Positions 24,808 to 44,753 of a stretch of DNA of 64,000 nucleotides are shown here, piece by piece. Made by a program: the position numbers and the translations under genes. Below the pieces are notes generated by a model, which saw only the letters and a list, made by a program, of their open reading frames with translations, searched no databases and had not been told where the DNA came from. This DNA comes from a virus, in IMG/VR virus record IMGVR_UViG_3300027754_000044; one strand, written 5' to 3'. Position 1 is the first letter of the stretch. Each line of letters starts with the position of its first letter.

Positions 24808-26223
24808 CTATTTAAATCCGCTGAAGTCTTTACGACCCATTTTTTTAGTAGCCCAACGCATAGAATCATCTTCATTCATACGCGCACCAAATTTACTTTT
24901 ATCAAACGCTGGCTTATCTACGATGAGATCTTCCTGCGCTGATTGCTCAACATCATATAATCTAAACTTAGATCTATCAATACCGACAACGAACTTAGAA
25001 TGAAGCGTGAGATCGTTGTATCGATTCTTTAATTGCTTAATCATCAATTGATTTAAATTTTGTAGTTCTTCCGATGATATAAGTGCTATCATGAAGTCTG
25101 CTGTGGCTGGAAGACCAAAGGATTCTGAGGTGTCAGTTAAATCCGGATCTGAGTTACTAAAACCAGATCGAGTTGTTTGTGTTGCGCTAACGATAGGAAC
25201 ATTGAATTCAACTGCTAATCCTCTCAATTCTTCTGCGATAGATTTAATATAAGTGTAACTATTTATATTTGCTCCGGGTTTAACTCTCGAAGACATAGAG
25301 ATATTCAGATAATCTAGGTAGATAATATCTGGCTTGAAGGTTCGCTTTAGATTTAGTTCATTGAGTAGATGGCGGAAATGCCCAACGTGAGCAGTTGCTG
25401 TTGGATATTCCTTTACGATGAGTTTTCCGGAAGTTTTAGAACGAACTTTAGAAACTTTCGTTTCATACATATCTTTCGAAAGATTGGCTAGATCTTCACA
25501 AGCTACGTTCAAAAGATTTGCATCAATACGTTCTGCGATCTTTTCTTCGGCCATTTCCATAGTCAGATAAAGAACATTTTTTCCGAGCATCATATTGGAC
25601 GCAGCCAAATGACACATCGCTAGAGTCTTACCTACTCCAGTTCCAGCCATAATGATATTCAACGACTTCTTAGAAAATCCGCCGCGAGTTATCTTATTCA
25701 TCATATCCAGATCGAAAGGAACTTTCTCTTCGACGCGATGATAAAAATCATATCGCTCAGCAAAGTCCTCTAGAAAATCATGGCCAATATGATTGTCGAA
25801 AGAGATAGCAAGAGCATCAGTCAATATCTGTGGTATATTTCCTTTATCCTGATGCTTTTCTTTTCCGTCAAGAATATGAATGCTATCCATAATAGCATTA
25901 TATACAGCTTTCTCCTGACAGAATTTCTCAGTTGTATTGAGCAACCAAGTTTCGTCTATCTTTTCTGGAGGAGTTAAGGCGTCGATGAGTTCTGAAGATT
26001 GCTTATGCTCAGACTCACCAACTCCGGTCAAATTATTTAACTCAATTGAAAGTGCTTCTTTTGTGGGTAGTGAATTATATTTTGAAACGAAAGACTCGAT
26101 CTGTTTAAAAACGAGCCTTTCGCTTGAATCTACAAAATACTTTTCTTTAAGAAAGGGAATAACTTTTCGTGCATAACTATCATCATGCAATAGATGATTC
26201 AGTATCGTCGATTCGATTCTCAT
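24808..26223 (-). CDS. gp41: Replicative DNA helicase (T4 gp41-like)
   Basis: AGTGVGKT Walker A; YLDYLN; SATQTTR; SESFGLPATAD; KQLKNRY. Confidence 0.96.
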   Translation of the reverse strand: MRIESTILNHLLHDDSYARKVIPFLKEKYFVDSSERLVFKQIESFVSKYNSLPTKEALSIELNNLTGVGESEHKQSSELIDALTPPEKIDETWLLNTTEKFCQEKAVYNAIMDSIHILDGKEKHQDKGNIPQILTDALAISFDNHIGHDFLEDFAERYDFYHRVEEKVPFDLDMMNKITRGGFSKKSLNIIMAGTGVGKTLAMCHLAASNMMLGKNVLYLTMEMAEEKIAERIDANLLNVACEDLANLSKDMYETKVSKVRSKTSGKLIVKEYPTATAHVGHFRHLLNELNLKRTFKPDIIYLDYLNISMSSRVKPGANINSYTYIKSIAEELRGLAVEFNVPIVSATQTTRSGFSNSDPDLTDTSESFGLPATADFMIALISSEELQNLNQLMIKQLKNRYNDLTLHSKFVVGIDRSKFRLYDVEQSAQEDLIVDKPAFDKSKFGARMNEDDSMRWATKKMGRKDFSGFK

Positions 26224-27292
26224 TTACTTTCTTCTGTGTAGTTTCAATTGATTCATCGTCGGACTTTGTTTCTTGTCCATATTTAAATTCGCGAGCAGCT
26301 GCAACTTCTAATTGATCTAGCAGATCTTTTGTAAAGTATTTTTCTGGTTCATCATTAATTGTTTTGCCAAAAACTTTAGTTCCATCAGGAAGTTCATAAC
26401 GGGTGCTAACCTTCTTAATGATACCATATTTTTCAGCAAGATCCAATAGACCGTAATAGCGATCCAGACCTTTAGAATAAGAAAGTTTAACATCAACCAT
26501 CTTATTTTCCTTCGTCATTCGACTCTTATGCATCTTACAGTGAATGATATTTCCTACAACTTCTGTTCCCTCTTTGTCTTTTTTCTTTGACAGCATTACA
26601 ATCTGTGATGCTGCGTATTTCAATCCTGATCCACCAGAGATTTCATTTGTTGGAAAGAAAGAACCGATAGCTGCATAGACGTGATTGGTGATGATCAGAG
26701 GAACATTAATTTTTGCCAGCTTCAATGAAAGCACTCGAAATGTTGCTTTAGCTAAAGCAGCTTTGGTCATATCTTTGGTTTCTGAACCTTCGGTAGAATC
26801 AGAAATTTCTTTCGTGCTCGACAACATACCAAATGAATCTAGAATCATGAGCATCGGAGGACGGTCATCCTTTTCCATTTTGGCATAATTGTCTAGAACT
26901 TTAATTGCATGAGTTCTAAAATTTTGAATGGTATCAGTTTCAACTATGATGACTCGCTTTGTATCAAGTCCACGATCAAGCATCATCTGTTTGGTAACAG
27001 CAGCTTCTGTATCGTAGTAGAAAATTGCGGCATCTTTGTTATCGTCCAGAAACTGTTTAGCAATCCCTAGAACGAAAAATGTTTTTCCTGTAGCACTTTC
27101 ACCTGCGAATGCGGTGATTTTATTATTCGGAACTCCACCAAAGATACTTCCAGTCAGAGCAGCATTAAGAATATAACTACCAGTGTCAATTGCTCCAGAA
27201 TATTCTGAGGAATGTAAACCATCGTCCGCAAGATGTGTATCAACATCACCTAGATCCTTAATCATGTTTTTAATAAAATCGTGTTTCGACAT
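26183..27292 (-). CDS. uvsX: RecA-like recombinase UvsX
   Basis: DTGSYILNA; AGESATGKT; YYDTE; SGGSGLKYAAS. Confidence 0.95.
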   Translation of the reverse strand: MSKHDFIKNMIKDLGDVDTHLADDGLHSSEYSGAIDTGSYILNAALTGSIFGGVPNNKITAFAGESATGKTFFVLGIAKQFLDDNKDAAIFYYDTEAAVTKQMMLDRGLDTKRVIIVETDTIQNFRTHAIKVLDNYAKMEKDDRPPMLMILDSFGMLSSTKEISDSTEGSETKDMTKAALAKATFRVLSLKLAKINVPLIITNHVYAAIGSFFPTNEISGGSGLKYAASQIVMLSKKKDKEGTEVVGNIIHCKMHKSRMTKENKMVDVKLSYSKGLDRYYGLLDLAEKYGIIKKVSTRYELPDGTKVFGKTINDEPEKYFTKDLLDQLEVAAAREFKYGQETKSDDESIETTQKKVNENRIDDTESSIA

Positions 27293-27314
27293 ATGTTGCT
27301 CCTTGTATGAGTGT

Positions 27315-27343
27315 ATTATATACTATATTTCGAGATATGTAAA
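27315..27343 (-). promoter_or_regulatory. Sigma70-type promoter upstream of uvsX
   Basis: TTTACA-N17-TATAAT. Confidence 0.7.
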
Positions 27344-27346
27344 GGT

Positions 27347-28234
27347 TTATTTTTTCGTTTTTGTTACAGTGACGTCTGGCATTTCCATCCAATTCTTACC
27401 ATCTGTCGCTACAGCGTTTGCGTTGCTCTTGAACCACTTCTTAGCTTCCATAGAATATTTATTAGAAATATCTGTCGGTTTGGATTTTTGAGAATAATTA
27501 ATATTGGCAGAAACTATGAGTAATAAAGCCAATGGGTCTAATACTAAAACCAAAGCAATGATCATAAATCTTACGGCCTTCTCCAATATTTCTTTATTAG
27601 ATTCTCCGTAGATCAATTCAGCTACATAACGAATTGGTCCGACTTCTTTTTCGGCCGCCCGTATCTCTTTGGCTAGTGGCATCTTTTCTGTCTGAAGTTC
27701 ATCAATAGATTTTTGTGCATCCTTGATTTCTTTGTTTATCAACAGCCGTTCTTTTTCTTGGCTCTTTCTGTAACGCAATCCTTGTTCTGCATCTTTATCA
27801 GAAATGATTTTATTGACTGCAGAATCTAATTGTTTAAGCGCAAGTGCACTAGTATCTATACGACTCTTTTCTCTTTCTATTTTAGAGTCTATCATTTCAA
27901 TCTTAGACTGAAAGTCGCCTGAAGACAGATTCTGGTCTATATGTGCTTTGGAAAGGAAACCAAAAACACCCATACTTGTAATGAACATTAATATAGTGAC
28001 AGCAATTGAAAAATATGTTTTCATCAGTAGCGGTAAGATACTCCAGTTTCTATACAGATACGAAGCTGTAATAATTTTACCTATTTCTAGAGTAGTTCCC
28101 ATTATGATGATGGGCCAAAACGATGCAGAAAATATAGCAGCCAATCCAGTTATAGCATACCACGCGGATACAAATGAAAGTGTAATCCCTGTAAAAATTG
28201 CTAATGATCTGTCTATATTAGGCTTCAGCTTCAT
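27347..28234 (-). CDS. Membrane protein with a coiled-coil domain
   Basis: 3 N-terminal TM helices, TSMGVFGFLSKAH, coiled coil, EVGPIRYVAE, C-terminal TM. Confidence 0.7.
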   Translation of the reverse strand: MKLKPNIDRSLAIFTGITLSFVSAWYAITGLAAIFSASFWPIIIMGTTLEIGKIITASYLYRNWSILPLLMKTYFSIAVTILMFITSMGVFGFLSKAHIDQNLSSGDFQSKIEMIDSKIEREKSRIDTSALALKQLDSAVNKIISDKDAEQGLRYRKSQEKERLLINKEIKDAQKSIDELQTEKMPLAKEIRAAEKEVGPIRYVAELIYGESNKEILEKAVRFMIIALVLVLDPLALLLIVSANINYSQKSKPTDISNKYSMEAKKWFKSNANAVATDGKNWMEMPDVTVTKTKK

Positions 28235-29033
28235 ATAAACTTCTTCCTAGTTTATTCCAATCGCGACATATATCCATAATTCGAATTCGTTTCTTAAAAT
28301 TAATTCTATCATTTTCTAAAAGACTTTCGAACAACTTATCTATATTGGAACCTAATTGCAAATTTATATGCTTCTTAAACTTACCAATCAGTTTAAATTC
28401 AGAGAATGCGGTTACTACGTGATGTTTCTGGAATGGTTTATTTAGTTCATACCAGTCATACTGTCGGAAAAAATCAATCACATTTTTTTCTAAGTAAGGC
28501 GCAATGATTTTTTTATCGTATTGTTTAGCTAGAATTTTTTGCTGAATCAGACCAGCTGGATTCTTTTGTGCAAAATAATCTACGCGAAATTCATCAAATT
28601 TAGATTTTGGTGTTTTGTAATGGATACATGCTTTCTTAGAAACGCCATAGTGACCATCAGCTGCAATTCCAGAAATTACTTCAAATTCCTTGATCTTCGG
28701 ATACACATATAGAAATGGGAATGTGCATTCGAAGTGAGTTTTCTTTTTGCATTCAATATCTGTAGCTAGATATATGAAATCGCTCTCTAGATTTTTGGCA
28801 GGAACTTCAATTAGAGTATACTCCCAATTCATAATCTTAGCGACTTCAATTGCTTTCATTGCGTCATAAGAAGGGTCGTTTTCTAAATGAAACGTATATA
28901 CGTGAACCTTCTTACCTAACCTATGCGCAGAGAAAGCACAAGAGATACTATCAACTCCACCAGACATTAAGACCGCTACAGAGTCTGATTTGGAATGTTT
29001 CTGTATCTCATTGCATAATAACTGATCAATCAT
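28218..29033 (-). CDS. Asparagine synthetase C-terminal-like (PP-loop) ATP-dependent enzyme without a glutaminase domain
   Basis: VAVLMSGGVDS; ISGIAADGHYG (cf. AsnB SGEGADELFG); APYL. Confidence 0.75.
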   Translation of the reverse strand: MIDQLLCNEIQKHSKSDSVAVLMSGGVDSISCAFSAHRLGKKVHVYTFHLENDPSYDAMKAIEVAKIMNWEYTLIEVPAKNLESDFIYLATDIECKKKTHFECTFPFLYVYPKIKEFEVISGIAADGHYGVSKKACIHYKTPKSKFDEFRVDYFAQKNPAGLIQQKILAKQYDKKIIAPYLEKNVIDFFRQYDWYELNKPFQKHHVVTAFSEFKLIGKFKKHINLQLGSNIDKLFESLLENDRINFKKRIRIMDICRDWNKLGRSLYEAEA

Positions 29034-29402
29034 TTAGCCTCTTGTGATAGCTAATACTGCATCCAATTGTTTTTGAACTACTGGACCGCGATTTGGCCAC
29101 AGGATATATTCTTTATCTGCAGTCTTCAGGAGATTATTTAGAAGCGGAACAATGATTGCTTCTAGTTTTCGAATTTTATCTTTCAACTGCGCTTCTGTTA
29201 TATTTTCATCTCCACGTTCTTCTAACTTAAATACCAACGACGTCAGAGCATCAATTTTTTCTTCAAGACGCTGAACATCTTGAGAAGGAACGATATCATT
29301 AGTTGTTGTAGGTTCGAGCGGTCTTATAGCACTTTCGTCGATAGCTGAAAATCCATAATCTAATGAAAGATATTCTGCGGGAACTACTGCGTGTGTGGTC
29401 AT
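29034..29402 (-). CDS. Conserved phage hypothetical protein
   Basis: DYGFSAIDE; LEAIIVPLLNNLLKTADKEYILWPNR. Confidence 0.65.
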   Translation of the reverse strand: MTTHAVVPAEYLSLDYGFSAIDESAIRPLEPTTTNDIVPSQDVQRLEEKIDALTSLVFKLEERGDENITEAQLKDKIRKLEAIIVPLLNNLLKTADKEYILWPNRGPVVQKQLDAVLAITRG

Positions 29403-29410
29403 ATTAATCC

Positions 29411-31912
29411 TTAAAAAAAGTTTTCTAGAGACGAAATCGGTTCTTCTTTCCAATGAATCACGTTCAATATAGATCTCAGTGGATCTAGAAATGCCTTCTC
29501 AAATTGTAAATCGTAGTCAATGTATGCGTTCATTTTAAATTCTTTTGGAAGAACAGATACGATCGATAAAATATTCTCCTGCAATGGATTTGGCATTTTC
29601 ATGTAGCAGTATTTTATTTTCTCGCCATCCTTGATCGACTCATATTTCTTTGTTAGCTTGTAATCTTTCAGAGCTTTATTGAAGGATATCGCACCACGAA
29701 CTGCAATTGGTATAGCTTTCGTTTCCTTAGAATAATATTGAACATTCTGAACGCTTCTCGGAAACGATATATCCTCAAATGGTAGAGTTTTAAACTTCTT
29801 CTTAAACTCTTTGATGTGTTCTTGAATACGTTCTTCGCTATGATTCATGATAATATTCAGCGATTCCGTTAAGGCTACTCTACAACTAGACGGAGTCGAC
29901 GATTTAACAGTTTCTACGCCCATCATTTTCAATTTTGGTTTTTCGTAACGAACGCCTTCACTATCATAAACATTCAGGATATATCTTTTCTTAGCTGTCC
30001 ATATTCCTCTATCGGCGATAACTTCTCGCTTCATGTTCATTTTCTGTTGGAACGCACCACACCTTTTAGCAAGTTTCTCATAAATATCATCAATGACAGG
30101 TTCAAACTTCTCACGTGCAACCCTATCCAAGAATTCGACAATTCTTTCTTTAGAAATATCGTCTCTATCCTTGAACACACTTCGCACAAGCCCACCAAAA
30201 GTAATATATAAGCTGTCTGTATCGGACGCAATAACATAATCAATATCATTTGTTTTTAATAATCTATTTATATAGATATTCAAATGATTTTCTGCCCAAC
30301 GAATAGCCAACTGACCACCCATGGTAATTGCAGTTGCGTGATCTATGTCGAAGAATCTAAAGTATTGATTACCAATCGCGCCATAAGCACTATTCAGTTG
30401 AACCTTTCTAGCCAACTGGATATTTTTGAAGCGTGATATTTCTTTAGAATACTTTTTCTTCTCTTCTGGAGTTTTTGCTACTTCGTATTTCTTTTGAGAA
30501 GCGATCATCTTCTCTTTATAGATCGTTCTATCTGCATAGAGCCTTTCCATAATCTCAGGAAGAAACCCCTGCTTATCATTCTTAAAATAACTACCATTTG
30601 GTGCAAGACAATATCCATTGATAAGAGGAAGCTGACTATCACTTAAGAATTCATCTATCGTGATGTTAGCTTTTTTACCCTTGAGCATAGTTTCTGGAGA
30701 AATATTATACTGCATGATCAAGTGTGGATACAATGAATTCAAGTCAAAAGACATTACCCAGTCACTCGATCCTACTTGTGGATCCTTAACATACGCACCA
30801 ATAAACTGCTCTGATTTGTGTCCTCCACCAGAAAGAGGAATGGCGATCTTCTTTTTATATAGATGATTGTGAATGATAACATCCCACATCTTAACCTGTG
30901 TAAAGGTATCTGCCATATTAACTTTAGCATCATACGCCAGAGTTAATACCATCTCAATAAGTTTCATCTTATCGTCTAGCTTATCTACAAGCTCAACGTC
31001 TCGAATATTATAATTGATGTAATTGACGAAATCGTTTTCATAGAAGTCGTGAATAGTTTCATAGCCTAGTTCGTGGAAATCTAATTTCTTTTCACCAAGT
31101 TCAACAAATGCTATATGATCTAGACGATATGATTCTTGTTGTGTGTATGTAAATTTCCTATACATCTCTAGATAATCAAGGACGGCAACACCTACGATGG
31201 TTATCAGTATGTGTTCCTTTCCCATAACTTTAGTGGTTTTCTCATTCACATGCTTCCATGGCGAAAGGCGTTTACATTCTTTTTCATCTAGAACATTACG
31301 AATACGATTTACCAGATACGGAATATCAAAGAAAGATACATTCCATCCAGTCAAAATATCTGGCACTCCATAGCGTTCCCATTCATCCAAGAATGCCATC
31401 AGCAGATGTCTTTCATTCTTACAATGGATATACTTTACATCGTCGCGTTCTGGTTCATAATTATTACAACCAAACACATAGAAAGTTTTGTCTTTTTTGA
31501 GCGTGATTGCAGTAATTTCTTCGCTCGCAGAATTTACGTTTGGAAATCCATTTCCGGCATAGACCTCAATATCGATATTAGCGATTCGAATTCTATCAAT
31601 ATCGTATACAACTTCATTTCGATATTCTTCATTCAGCCACGCATATTCGTATCTGGAAAATCCATAGATTGGAAATCCAGTAACGTCTTTATAATTGTCG
31701 ATGAAGTTTTTAGCTTCTGTAACAGAATCGAACTCTAATGGTTCTAGAGCTTGCCCTTCGATACTAGACCAAAACGCTTCTGATTTATTTTTGGCTGGAA
31801 TAAATAGTTTTGGTTTATAGTGTATCTTTTTAGAGAATGCCCCGCCGTCATCATATCCACGAACAAGAACATTATCGCCCCACAGAATAGCTGATGTGTA
31901 AAATTTGCTCAA
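29411..31912 (-). CDS. gp43: Family B DNA polymerase (T4 gp43-like)
   Basis: Exo DIEV and GWN..FFDIPY; SFDLNSLYP; KVQLNSAYG; SDTDS; TTG start. Confidence 0.97.
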   Translation of the reverse strand: MSKFYTSAILWGDNVLVRGYDDGGAFSKKIHYKPKLFIPAKNKSEAFWSSIEGQALEPLEFDSVTEAKNFIDNYKDVTGFPIYGFSRYEYAWLNEEYRNEVVYDIDRIRIANIDIEVYAGNGFPNVNSASEEITAITLKKDKTFYVFGCNNYEPERDDVKYIHCKNERHLLMAFLDEWERYGVPDILTGWNVSFFDIPYLVNRIRNVLDEKECKRLSPWKHVNEKTTKVMGKEHILITIVGVAVLDYLEMYRKFTYTQQESYRLDHIAFVELGEKKLDFHELGYETIHDFYENDFVNYINYNIRDVELVDKLDDKMKLIEMVLTLAYDAKVNMADTFTQVKMWDVIIHNHLYKKKIAIPLSGGGHKSEQFIGAYVKDPQVGSSDWVMSFDLNSLYPHLIMQYNISPETMLKGKKANITIDEFLSDSQLPLINGYCLAPNGSYFKNDKQGFLPEIMERLYADRTIYKEKMIASQKKYEVAKTPEEKKKYSKEISRFKNIQLARKVQLNSAYGAIGNQYFRFFDIDHATAITMGGQLAIRWAENHLNIYINRLLKTNDIDYVIASDTDSLYITFGGLVRSVFKDRDDISKERIVEFLDRVAREKFEPVIDDIYEKLAKRCGAFQQKMNMKREVIADRGIWTAKKRYILNVYDSEGVRYEKPKLKMMGVETVKSSTPSSCRVALTESLNIIMNHSEERIQEHIKEFKKKFKTLPFEDISFPRSVQNVQYYSKETKAIPIAVRGAISFNKALKDYKLTKKYESIKDGEKIKYCYMKMPNPLQENILSIVSVLPKEFKMNAYIDYDLQFEKAFLDPLRSILNVIHWKEEPISSLENFF

Positions 31913-31942
31913 AGTATTCCCAATAAGTCATTATCATATAGT

Positions 31943-31971
31943 ATTATACTTCATCTACATCAAAATGTAAA
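31943..31971 (-). promoter_or_regulatory. Sigma70-type promoter upstream of gp43
   Basis: TTTACA-N17-TATAAT. Confidence 0.7.
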
Positions 31972-31974
31972 GGC

Positions 31975-32301
31975 CTATTTTGTAAATGGTAGGATATTTC
32001 CTGAACCACTAAGAGATTTCGCTAGAACTATTCCACTACCGAACGATGTGCTGTATGCGTTTTTAATGTCGGTATTTGGTTCATACGAAAATAAGATATT
32101 TTCGTCAGAAATTGTTATCTCTTTTTTTTCTGAAAACATCAAATAATCAGCAAGCCCTACAGACGGACGACCATCTCGTCCTGCCTGAACAACTAGGGCT
32201 GCTGGATTTTTCAAAACTGCACCAGAAATTTCTGATGAACGCGATGCATCTGCTACAACTTCTTCACCATTCACGAGTCTAATAACAATAACATTATCCA
32301 T
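31975..32301 (-). CDS. Conserved T4-like hypothetical protein (Sm-like fold suspected)
   Basis: VIRLVNGEEVVA..LKNP..Y...FGSGIV pattern. Confidence 0.6.
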   Translation of the reverse strand: MDNVIVIRLVNGEEVVADASRSSEISGAVLKNPAALVVQAGRDGRPSVGLADYLMFSEKKEITISDENILFSYEPNTDIKNAYSTSFGSGIVLAKSLSGSGNILPFTK

Positions 32302-42111: not shown

Positions 42112-42816
42112 CTATTTTATTGCTAAAAATCCTACAAACGCATGGTTTTGCCAAAAAGATTCAATTTTGCTAAAACCTGCAGCTTTGCACATATTTAGTA
42201 ATTCTTTACGGGTGTTTGGTTTAGCCATCGACCGCAAAGTTTTTTCTTTATCCATAATATCGTCAGTTGTGAAACTTTTTCTTTTATAGTCGTAATATGT
42301 AAAAGTTCTAATATCTTGAATTTTTGCAGAGTCCGCCATGGTCTTCTCAGAAAAAACGAATGCACCACCGGAATTTAATCCATTATATACATTTTTGATA
42401 ACTTCCATTCGCTGATGCGGTGGCATAAACATCAGAGTGAAGATCGAAGAAACGAAGGAACAATTTTCAAAATCATAATCTCGAACATCAATATTGTAAA
42501 AATACAAATTTGGTATGAAATTTTCTTTCGTTGAAGACGTCCATTCATCTGACCGTTTCGGCCATTCTTCAGCGAATTTTTCTTCTAGTTCAATTCCAAT
42601 ATACGATGCTCTTTTAGAAAAAGAATTTTGATTGATCATAGTTTTCAACATTTTTCCAGTAGAGCAACCAATATCAACGACTTTTGTATCATCTTCCACA
42701 AAATATTCTGAAAGTTTCAATACATCGTCTATAAGATTAGAATACCCTCGTATAGACAAATCTATGTGTGTATCGAATCCTTCAGAACGTTGTGCGAATG
42801 TAAAAGGTTGTGTCAT
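42112..42816 (-). CDS. cmoA: CmoA-like carboxy-S-adenosylmethionine synthase
   Basis: FD.HI..SIRGY, DIGCSTG, SIFTLMF, LNSGGAFVFSEK, DYKR, AGF..IESFWQ...F..FLAIK, colinear with CmoA. Confidence 0.8.
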   Translation of the reverse strand: MTQPFTFAQRSEGFDTHIDLSIRGYSNLIDDVLKLSEYFVEDDTKVVDIGCSTGKMLKTMINQNSFSKRASYIGIELEEKFAEEWPKRSDEWTSSTKENFIPNLYFYNIDVRDYDFENCSFVSSIFTLMFMPPHQRMEVIKNVYNGLNSGGAFVFSEKTMADSAKIQDIRTFTYYDYKRKSFTTDDIMDKEKTLRSMAKPNTRKELLNMCKAAGFSKIESFWQNHAFVGFLAIK

Positions 42817-44024
42817 GATATATCCTTGTATGGTTTCAATATATTTTTATAAACGTGGCTTGCTAAAGCGAACATCATCTTCGGAGCAACCATTCTTCCG
42901 ATGCGCTCTGCTTGTTGATCGAAAGTTCCTGTCAATTCATAATCATCAGGAAGGCTCATTATACGCTTCAATTCTTTAATTGTCAACTTGCGATCTTCAT
43001 TATAATGTATAACGCCCGATGCACCTTTTTGTTGACCTGTCTGTGTTAAAGTCGGACACGGAAGATGTCGAGCTGGTCGTTTCAAATTGAAACAAGTTTC
43101 TTTTGGCTGAAGAACTTTAGGTGGATTTTTTGGTAACAAACCCACAAACTTTTTCAGGAACCCATTTTCAACAACATCTAATAGTTCTTTCACTTCTTGT
43201 GGGTCATTAACTATATCTCCAATCGCTTTTTCTATAGCAACTTCTTTAGAATATTTTCCATGTTCTTTCGGAGTAGATGGGTTTGGAAATACCACGCTAT
43301 TGACATTTAAAATGTTCAATCCGATTGAATTAGCAACATCATCCCTCACACAAACAAAGAACGTTCTTTGTCTACTCTGTGCAACTCCATACTCTGCAGC
43401 ATTCAATACTTTATATGTGGTAAGATATCCGATCTTTTCGAATCCATTAATGAACTCAGCTAATTTAGCTCTAGCTGTATCCATTGTTAATCCCTTCACA
43501 TTTTCAGCAATGATCACTTTAGGTTTTATATCTTTCGCGATCCTAATAAACTCATTGAAAAGATCCTCAATAGCTTCTACTGTCTTCCCGTCAGAATACG
43601 ACTTTATGCCAGAATGAACTTCAATCGAACCTTCGTGGATCATCTCTCCGTCATCATCAAAATATGATTTTCGAGTATCTAAAATTGCGCCCTTCCAATT
43701 CTTTCCTTTAGACGAAGAAGAAACAGAAAATGCAGAACACGGAGGCGAGCCATCAAATATATCTAATTCGCCTTCTTTTAACCCAGATACATCAAGAAAA
43801 TCTTTTCCAGAAAGTTTTTTTATATCACCTGGAATAATTTTAGTGTCTGGGAAATTTAATGAATATGTCTTAATAGCTTCCTCAACAAATTCATTTATCG
43901 CAAGAACATTTCCACCAGCCAAACGATATCCAGTAGATGATCCACCTCCACCAGCAAATGTAGAAATTACAGTGAATAATTTTTTCGATGATTCTGAAGT
44001 AACATCACTTTTAAAGTATGGCAT
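42813..44024 (-). CDS. C5-cytosine DNA methyltransferase homologue (predicted carboxymethyltransferase)
   Basis: Motif I FAGGGG, IV GSPPC, VI ENV, VIII QSRQR, IX RKLT..E..R; motif X is GRMV rather than GNxV. Confidence 0.9.
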   Translation of the reverse strand: MPYFKSDVTSESSKKLFTVISTFAGGGGSSTGYRLAGGNVLAINEFVEEAIKTYSLNFPDTKIIPGDIKKLSGKDFLDVSGLKEGELDIFDGSPPCSAFSVSSSSKGKNWKGAILDTRKSYFDDDGEMIHEGSIEVHSGIKSYSDGKTVEAIEDLFNEFIRIAKDIKPKVIIAENVKGLTMDTARAKLAEFINGFEKIGYLTTYKVLNAAEYGVAQSRQRTFFVCVRDDVANSIGLNILNVNSVVFPNPSTPKEHGKYSKEVAIEKAIGDIVNDPQEVKELLDVVENGFLKKFVGLLPKNPPKVLQPKETCFNLKRPARHLPCPTLTQTGQQKGASGVIHYNEDRKLTIKELKRIMSLPDDYELTGTFDQQAERIGRMVAPKMMFALASHVYKNILKPYKDIS

Positions 44025-44541
44025 TTTGTCTCTGTTTTTGTTTCATGTAAATTTTTTGTTTGCGTTTTGCTTTTTCTACATGATATGGTTTAGCCGTATT
44101 CGTATAGAGTATTCCTTGCAGATGATCATATTCGTGCAGGAATACTCTAGCGGTCATACCATCAAATTTTATTGTATCTGTAAAATTTTCACAAGTTGTA
44201 TATCGAACACGAACTGCGCTATTACGTTTCATCCGAATAAATAGCCCAGGGAATGTCAGACATCCTTCGTCATAGTAAACATCTTTTCCTATCTCTTCGA
44301 TAAGTTTTGGATTAAATACTGGTATGATGGAAGATCGATCTGATGGATTTCCCATAATAAAAACATTCAAAGGAATACCACATTGCGGAGCAGCTAATCC
44401 TATGCCTCGCTCTTTACACATAAGATCACACATACTTTCGAATAATTCTTTTGGATCATAGATTCCAACCACATCAAAATCAAAATCTTCAGCTTTTTGA
44501 CGGAGGATAGGATGATCTGCACTCACTAAAGATAATTTCAT
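44011..44541 (-). CDS. def: Peptide deformylase
   Basis: GIGLAAPQ, EGCLTFPG, HEYDHLQG. Confidence 0.95.
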   Translation of the reverse strand: MKLSLVSADHPILRQKAEDFDFDVVGIYDPKELFESMCDLMCKERGIGLAAPQCGIPLNVFIMGNPSDRSSIIPVFNPKLIEEIGKDVYYDEGCLTFPGLFIRMKRNSAVRVRYTTCENFTDTIKFDGMTARVFLHEYDHLQGILYTNTAKPYHVEKAKRKQKIYMKQKQRQNAIL

Positions 44542-44753
44542 AATTCCATCCTTGTCCACTCTTTACCACAAACTAAACATTCCATTATTCCTATTCTAGA
44601 ACAAGTTTCACTAACAACATTTCCGTGTTTATCATAAACTTCAGTTTGATGCATCGGAGTAAATTTCTCACCCTTAACTATTCTGCAATCAACGCGATCA
44701 CAATCCACAATAGGTGAATTAGATCCATATTCAGATAAAAATTCTTTTGTCAT
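44538..44753 (-). CDS. Small Cys-containing (Zn-ribbon-like) protein
   Basis: CDRVDC ... CLVCGKEW; ATGA overlaps on both sides. Confidence 0.55.
   Translation of the reverse strand: MTKEFLSEYGSNSPIVDCDRVDCRIVKGEKFTPMHQTEVYDKHGNVVSETCSRIGIMECLVCGKEWTRMEL

Follow-up and report, generated by a model that had tools for sequence, protein, structure and literature searches.

In a 64,000-nucleotide (nt) stretch of DNA from an uncultured virus (IMG/VR record IMGVR_UViG_3300027754_000044; hereafter, the window), an open reading frame (ORF) of 271 amino acids (aa) located between gp43 and uvsX probably codes for a CmoY orthologue, CmoY being the third enzyme in the CmoA-CmoX-CmoY pathway of DNA hypermodification. 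On the basis of sequence comparison, we put the probability of this assignment at about 0.82. An earlier note on this DNA had proposed that the product is a ligase related to asparagine synthetase that amidates 5-carboxymethylcytosine (5cxmC), and this idea is now supported by the reaction shown for the CmoY of Synechococcus phage S-B43, with which the window protein shares 52% identity across 98% of its length.

The CmoA-CmoX-CmoY cassette of S-B43 was characterised in a report in Nature Communications on 7 December 2025 (PMC12783734). In this phage, CmoA makes carboxy-S-adenosylmethionine (carboxy-SAM), and CmoX (SpCmoX), a homologue of C5 methyltransferases (MTases) with an SPPC motif and with Arg350 replacing the motif-X Asn, carboxymethylates cytosine at GC sites (PMC12783734). 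CmoY (SpCmoY), an asparagine-synthetase homologue, requires ATP and glycine and converts 5cxmC in double-stranded DNA into 5-glycylcarboxymethylcytosine (5gcxmC), which was detected in virion DNA, where 5cxmC was not; an adenylate intermediate was proposed by the authors by analogy (PMC12783734). The same report drew the similarity-network cluster of SpCmoY at an E value of 1e-56, with the modelled glycine-carboxylate-binding residues conserved, and pointed out that other ligase clusters have distinct pocket residues and that further amines remain to be identified (PMC12783734).

When isolate phages were searched by tblastn, 58 records matched the window CmoY, the best of them being Synechococcus phages S-B05, S-B43 and RB11-B (52% identity, 98% coverage, E 7e-83). 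The match in S-B43 (147774-148574) is the cmoY locus itself, which the published source data place at 147774-148589 (PMC12783734). By BLASTP, the window protein and the CmoY of S-B05 are 52% identical across 267 of 271 residues (E 4e-98), a match well above anything that chance would give and far stronger than the threshold of the network cluster, and the invariant basic residues K97, K98, K133, R150, R249 and R251 are common to both. The likeness to S-B43 CmoY (UniProt A0A514ABJ0) extends to the length of 271 aa, to the ATP-pyrophosphatase loop (PP-loop), the G-x-x-x-D and Q-K motifs, and to the lack of a glutaminase domain, and S-B43, too, is a T4-like marine myovirus with CmoA and an Arg-containing CmoX. 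The differences lie in the arrangement, since S-B43 and S-B05 have a single overlapping cmoA-cmoY-cmoX cassette downstream of gp41, whereas the window cmoY stands alone in the gp43-uvsX interval, and in the predicted isoelectric point (8.8 for the window CmoY versus 5.8 for that of S-B05). The overlapping genes of the S-B05 cassette are annotated as a methyltransferase-domain protein, a putative asparagine synthase and a DNA-cytosine methyltransferase.

Judging from similarity, the window contains all three genes of the pathway. The note's suggestion of a three-gene pathway split across the genome, with the MTase some 13 kb away, thus agrees with what we found, as cmoA and cmoX lie together 13.8 kb from cmoY. 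The window CmoA is 51% identical to that of S-B05 (E 3e-85), and so is the window CmoX to its S-B05 counterpart. CmoX carries GSPPCSAFS and has G-R-M-V as motif X, in which Arg377 (codon 42894-42896) is aligned to the R350 position of the characterised enzyme (PMC12783734). The cmoA and cmoX genes overlap by 4 nt, and the gene for peptide deformylase (PDF) and cmoX overlap by 14 nt.

Family, fold and conserved residues of the predicted ligase

The three motifs on which the earlier note relied, SGGVDS, SGIAADGHYG and APYL, are all present in the 271-aa frame, which lies on the minus strand, a point that the note had left out; ISGIAADGHYG corresponds to residues 120-130 and IIAPYL to residues 176-181. 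The absence of an N-terminal glutaminase domain could also be confirmed, as only 23 residues precede the PP-loop and family scans returned no glutaminase (GATase) match in the protein or in the ORF upstream. In these scans, Pfam Asn_synthase (1.7e-7) covered residues 4-129, which correspond to profile positions 4-132 of 354 only, and the NCBIfam asparagine synthase profile TIGR01536 scored 35 bits against a curated cut-off of 267.1, over positions 237-366 of 517 only. The Pfam profile of QueC matched at 1.3e-5, and phrog_26038, of unknown function, matched across the whole protein at 4.6e-31.

Several better-known identities were considered and rejected. AsnB, QueC, ThiI, LarE, NadE and MnmA all scored far below their curated cut-offs and matched the N-terminal nucleotide-binding part only. 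AsnB proper was discarded because of its low score and the missing GATase domain, and QueC (TIGR00364 / PF06508) because its match spans only residues 20-83, with 24 bits against a cut-off of 150, and because its structural score is 0.36, compared with 0.73-0.75 for the AsnB class.

These structural scores are query TM-scores (TMq) from Foldseek searches with an AlphaFold2 (AF2) model, which was built on 25 homologues and reached a mean predicted local distance difference test score (pLDDT) of 91.1 and a predicted template modelling score (pTM) of 0.88. Its best matches in the PDB (TMq 0.66-0.75) were the synthetase domains of AsnB (1ct9; E 1.8e-9, TMq 0.73), beta-lactam synthetase (1mc1/1jgt), carbapenam synthetase (1q19) and human ASNS, while QueC, the NAD synthetase NadE, LarE and TtuA reached TMq values of only 0.3-0.4. 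When the family profile was compared with the PDB, beta-lactam synthetase 1jgt was the best match (E 1.8e-4), in an alignment that places the PP-loop on SGGIDS and G122-x-x-x-D126 on residues 347-351 (G-Y-G-A-D) of that enzyme.

The beta-lactam and carbapenam synthetases (1jgt/1mc1, 1q19; TMq 0.70-0.75) resemble CmoY in that they are derived from AsnB and make an amide from an adenylated carboxylate with no use of glutamine. They differ in keeping a degenerate N-terminal domain, in forming an intramolecular amide within a small molecule and in using a Tyr348-Glu382 dyad. E. coli AsnB (1ct9; TIGR01536/PF00733) shares with CmoY the synthetase-domain fold, the PP-loop and the adenylation of a carboxylate followed by amidation; in contrast to CmoY, which acts on a modified base in duplex DNA with an amino acid as donor, it has an N-terminal nucleophile (Ntn) glutaminase domain and uses free aspartate and glutamine-derived ammonia (PMC12783734).

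Conservation was assessed over 44 unique CmoY homologues, those of S-B05 and Dickeya phage AD1 included, and all 30 of the 30 family-invariant residues are kept in the window protein, among them S24, G26, D28, K97, K98, E102, G122, D126, R150, Q202, K203, H222, R249, R251, D254 and D258.

Gene order and origin of the split arrangement

A scan of IMG/VR yielded 55 loci that encode CmoY relatives, against which the window proteins were run by tblastn; 52 of them have enough flanking sequence to be informative. This sample is biased towards close relatives and includes near-duplicates (hence the 44 unique CmoY sequences), such that the counts overstate the number of independent observations. The earlier note had suggested looking for co-occurrence of the gene with cmoA and the MTase, and cmoX was indeed found to adjoin cmoY, starting -18 to +243 nt after it, in 50 of the 52 informative loci, 43 of which also have cmoA. 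The linkage is uniform across several deep clades of the CmoY tree, and only two of the informative loci depart from it, L003 and L004, which are kin of the window, 93-99% identical to it, with the same gp43-orf-cmoY-orf295-uvsX order. Adjacency of cmoY to cmoX and cmoA is typical of the CmoY family, but it does not define it.

In T4-like marine phages, the cmo cassette was observed at no fewer than three sites. Many loci (L012, L018, L021, L024, L027, L037-L039 and others) have it between gp43 and uvsX in the order Y-X-A (gp43-cmoY-cmoX-cmoA-uvsX-gp41); a smaller set (L006-L008, L041) has the same Y-X-A order between PDF and a homologue of the window ORF w39941 (PDF-cmoY-cmoX-cmoA); and in S-B05 (L001), the cassette is found downstream of gp41 in the order A-Y-X. 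The T4 DNA-modification genes 42 and beta-gt are also located in the gp43-uvsX interval, and the overall picture suggests that this interval is a hot spot where modification genes have inserted repeatedly. Another five loci (L009, L010, L015-L017) have the order cmoA-cmoY-cmoX and a shorter CmoX of 327-332 aa; in these loci, CmoX (35-38% identity) and CmoA (29-30%) are much more divergent than CmoY (55-59%), the ligase being better conserved than its partners.

Each of the three window proteins, CmoY, CmoX and CmoA, clusters with the PDF-linked set in maximum-likelihood trees, with Shimodaira-Hasegawa-like approximate likelihood-ratio test (SH-aLRT) supports of 94, 99 and 99, respectively. Two long contigs with the PDF-linked set (G001 and G002) were compared with all minus-strand ORFs of the window. 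They are collinear with it along about 25 kb, their proteins being 30-65% identical, and read gp41, uvsX, orf295, gp43, a dozen genes in common, cmoA, cmoX, cmoY, PDF and two last genes that we take to be gp46 and gp47. In both of them, the homologue of orf295 is placed directly between uvsX and gp43, where there is no cmoY, and cmoY is found between cmoX and PDF. The cmo genes are contiguous in every other lineage of the IMG/VR locus set. Because these collinear relatives keep cmoA-cmoX-cmoY-PDF and have no cmoY beside gp43, the simplest reading is that the split is derived and would go back to one translocation of cmoY within the genome of the window lineage, over about 13 kb, from the cmoX/PDF junction to the gp43/orf295 junction. 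The gene order, thus, indicates that the 13-kb separation is the relocation of one cassette gene and not an independent recruitment. The window CmoY is kept at 93-100% identity among four independent metagenomic contigs, which, together with the 30 invariant residues, argues that the relocated gene is functional, and the window clade does not stand out by a long branch in the CmoY tree.

A comparable situation was observed outside this group, in Alexandravirus jumbo phages. Dickeya phage AD1 (L002, MH460463.1 12233-14932; AD1_018) and Erwinia phages have a CmoA-like gene, a DUF1611 gene and a CmoY-like gene in a row. The CmoY-like protein is 33-35% identical to the window CmoY from end to end, with the 30 family invariants retained, and the CmoA-like protein shows 24% identity. 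About 15 kb away (L058-L060, 30037-32076 of the record), there is a 723-aa ORF with C5-MTase motifs, in which motif X is G-R-I, with Arg as in CmoX. As in the window, a CmoY-like gene co-occurs with a CmoA-like gene and an MTase-like ORF with Arg in motif X, in a split arrangement; in contrast to the window, a DUF1611 gene separates the CmoA-like and CmoY-like genes, and the MTase-like ORF has 723 aa. This set looks like another split version of the pathway, as yet uncharacterised, that includes an additional DUF1611 enzyme.

Proposed reaction and its alternatives

In the proposed pathway, CmoA would convert SAM and prephenate into carboxy-SAM, and CmoX, with Arg377 in the place of the motif-X Asn, would carboxymethylate cytosines of the phage DNA (the S-B43 enzyme acts at GpC sites). 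CmoY would bind ATP at the PP-loop and adenylate the carboxylate of 5cxmC, after which an amine would attack the acyl-adenylate to form an amide, with the release of AMP and pyrophosphate. The amine would most probably be glycine, giving 5gcxmC, and the role of the hypermodification would presumably be the protection of phage DNA from host nucleases. For the window CmoY, we infer that the substrate and the amine are those of SpCmoY and that the reaction passes through an adenylate. Two observations make glycine the most likely amine: the match to S-B05 CmoY falls deep within the 1e-56 cluster, in which the glycine-carboxylate-binding residues are reported to be conserved, and the two proteins share the invariant basic residues. 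The window has 37.5% G+C and contains 2600 GpC dinucleotides, with no sign of GpC avoidance in it (observed/expected 1.16, a slight enrichment), and up to about 22% of its cytosines could be modified if every GpC were targeted, as by SpCmoX.

Three observations weigh against the identification of the gene as cmoY. First, 48% of the residues of the window protein differ from those of SpCmoY. Second, CmoY does not conserve the position aligned to Tyr348 of beta-lactam synthetase (presumably also that of the catalytic Glu348 in AsnB), where the window protein has Ile123 and most homologues have Trp; since this position differs, the nucleotide-binding scaffold of the classical enzymes appears to be kept, but not their catalytic base. 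Third, cmoY lies 13.8 kb away from cmoX and cmoA in the window instead of beside them.

It is conceivable, but unlikely, that the enzyme uses the same chemistry on the same 5cxmC base with a different amine (ammonia, a polyamine or an amino acid other than glycine), in which case the product would not be 5gcxmC. The published report describes ligase clusters with distinct pocket residues and amines that are yet to be identified (PMC12783734), and the window CmoY is only 52% identical to SpCmoY and falls on another branch of the CmoY tree than the S-B05 protein. Furthermore, several positions near the conserved motifs differ between the window and S-B05 proteins; for instance, DGHYG is found in place of DGYYG, and H204 and H205 in place of Q and I. 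Nevertheless, the E value of 4e-98 puts the window CmoY well inside the cluster that keeps the glycine-carboxylate-binding residues, and every invariant basic residue able to hold an alpha-carboxylate is common to S-B05 CmoY. In the particular case of ammonia, the family scans found neither a glutaminase domain nor a partner gene to supply it. There is a small chance that the translocated cmoY, transcribed along with gp43, attaches an amine other than glycine and that the result is a cytosine hypermodification that has so far not been described.

The distance between the genes might instead mean that, after leaving the cassette, CmoY took on a new substrate, such as a free metabolite, a nucleotide, a tRNA, a carboxylate in a protein or another modified base made by other genes of the same genome. 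PP-loop enzymes do act on many substrates, and weak matches to QueC, ThiI, LarE and NadE were found, but these are limited to the N-terminal nucleotide-binding part of a protein whose fold as a whole is that of the AsnB class. Members of the family are found beside cmoX in 50 of the 52 informative loci, cmoX and cmoA are intact in the same genome as cmoY, near-identical kin keep a CmoY with all the family invariants, and the branch of the window clade is of ordinary length, all of which makes such a change of substrate very improbable. That the gene is a decaying or inactive remnant of the rearrangement is hardly credible, for even though no other arrangement known among the 52 informative loci separates cmoY from cmoX, the full-length frame is intact with all invariants, the protein is conserved among the four metagenomic contigs, its AF2 model is confident, and the gene is tightly packed, abutting its upstream neighbour and overlapping the downstream one. 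Taken together with the match to S-B43, this leaves an orthologue of CmoY, probably using glycine, as the reading that we favour.

The cmoY locus and its wider meaning

The features of the locus and of the partner genes are listed in Table 1. The placement of the gene between gp43 and uvsX in the earlier note stands, but its direct flanks are two small ORFs that the note did not mention, the minus-strand order being gp43, orf139, cmoY, orf295, uvsX and gp41.

Table 1. Positions of cmoY, its neighbours, its partner genes and candidate promoters in the window
Feature	Position	Strand	Description and basis
uvsX	26183-27292	minus	Recombinase, downstream flank; phrog_97 8e-74
gp41	24808-26223	minus	Helicase; family scans
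Promoter upstream of uvsX	27315-27343	minus	Sigma-70-like, 11/12 matches; promoter scan
orf295	27347-28234	minus	295-aa membrane and coiled-coil protein, DUF4407-like; overlaps the cmoY end by 17 nt
cmoY	28218-29033	minus	271 aa, ATG start; predicted ATP-dependent 5cxmC-amine (probably glycine) ligase
G122-I-A-A-D126 motif	28656-28670	minus	G122 and D126 invariant; profile alignment to beta-lactam synthetase, conservation
PP-loop SGGVDS, residues 24-29	28947-28964	minus	ATP pyrophosphatase signature
orf139 (small ORF)	29034-29453	minus	139 aa from TTG; probably 122 aa from ATG at 29402
gp43	29411-31912	minus	Family-B DNA polymerase; phrog_262, 1053 bits
Promoter upstream of gp43	31943-31971	minus	Sigma-70-like, 11/12 matches; candidate promoter of the gp43-orf-cmoY-orf295 unit
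cmoA	42112-42816	minus	Carboxy-SAM synthase homologue, 234 aa; TIGR00740 8.9e-33, full length
cmoX	42813-44024	minus	C5 DNA cytosine carboxymethyltransferase homologue, 403 aa; PF00145 4.7e-53
PDF	44011-44559	minus	Peptide deformylase; PF01327 1.4e-34; marks the ancestral cmoY position

The stop codon of orf139 abuts the ATG of cmoY. Its TTG start overlaps gp43, and the ATG listed in Table 1 falls just past the gp43 stop; this ATG is the more likely start. The product is acidic, with a coiled coil, and no family match to it was found in Pfam, PHROG or NCBIfam. In the collinear contigs G001 and G002, a homologue that is 30-32% identical lies downstream of gp41, away from gp43, and this small ORF may have been relocated as well. 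The protein encoded by orf295 has a long coiled coil flanked by transmembrane helices at its N-terminus and by one at its C-terminus, and its look-alikes according to a language model are viral clusters automatically named "putative DUF4407 domain-containing protein". Because it is kept beside gp43 in G001 and G002, orf295 is a stable member of the replication module, an original neighbour of gp43 that stands outside the cmo pathway. We considered the flanking ORFs as extra pathway enzymes and rejected them, orf295 being DUF4407-like and adjoining gp43 even where cmoY is absent, and orf139 having no family match and only a weak homologue, at another site, in the collinear relatives.

The two candidate promoters of Table 1 (TTTACA, 17 nt, TATAAT) are the two best minus-strand matches in the window, and each of them is located in the intergenic gap before its gene; they resemble early promoters of the kind that the host RNA polymerase reads. 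Because their positions flank the unit and the scan found no terminator-like site between them, they suggest, albeit weakly, that cmoY is transcribed together with gp43 in one gp43-orf-cmoY-orf295 unit. The promoter scan as a whole showed no enrichment, with 25 sites against the 24.2 expected from shuffled sequences.

The plus strand of the window is asymmetric in composition, with 33.9% T versus 28.5% A and 20.4% C versus 17.1% G, in agreement with the location of nearly all window genes on the minus strand, and TpA is depleted in the window (observed/expected 0.75). No second copy of cmoY was found within the 64 kb. A megablast search with positions 26000-32000 gave no match in the isolate phage collection, which points to the lack of a close cultured relative, and the window gp43 is 51% identical to that of cyanomyoviruses.

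Since the chemistry of the pathway was already published in December 2025, the identification of this gene opens no new biological question, and what it adds is modest, namely, a different, uncultured T4-like lineage and a gene order, itself derived, that has the ligase outside the cassette. Within these bounds, cmoY would complete the CmoA-CmoX-CmoY pathway in an uncultured marine T4-like phage, the closest isolates of which have only 51% gp43 identity, and its presence predicts an amide-linked hypermodification of cytosine in the DNA of this phage. It also indicates that the ligase gene can leave the cassette. For instance, contigs from close kin of the window carry cmoY without any cmoX on them, and mining that relies on gene neighbourhood only, or on single short contigs, would therefore miss such members of the pathway.

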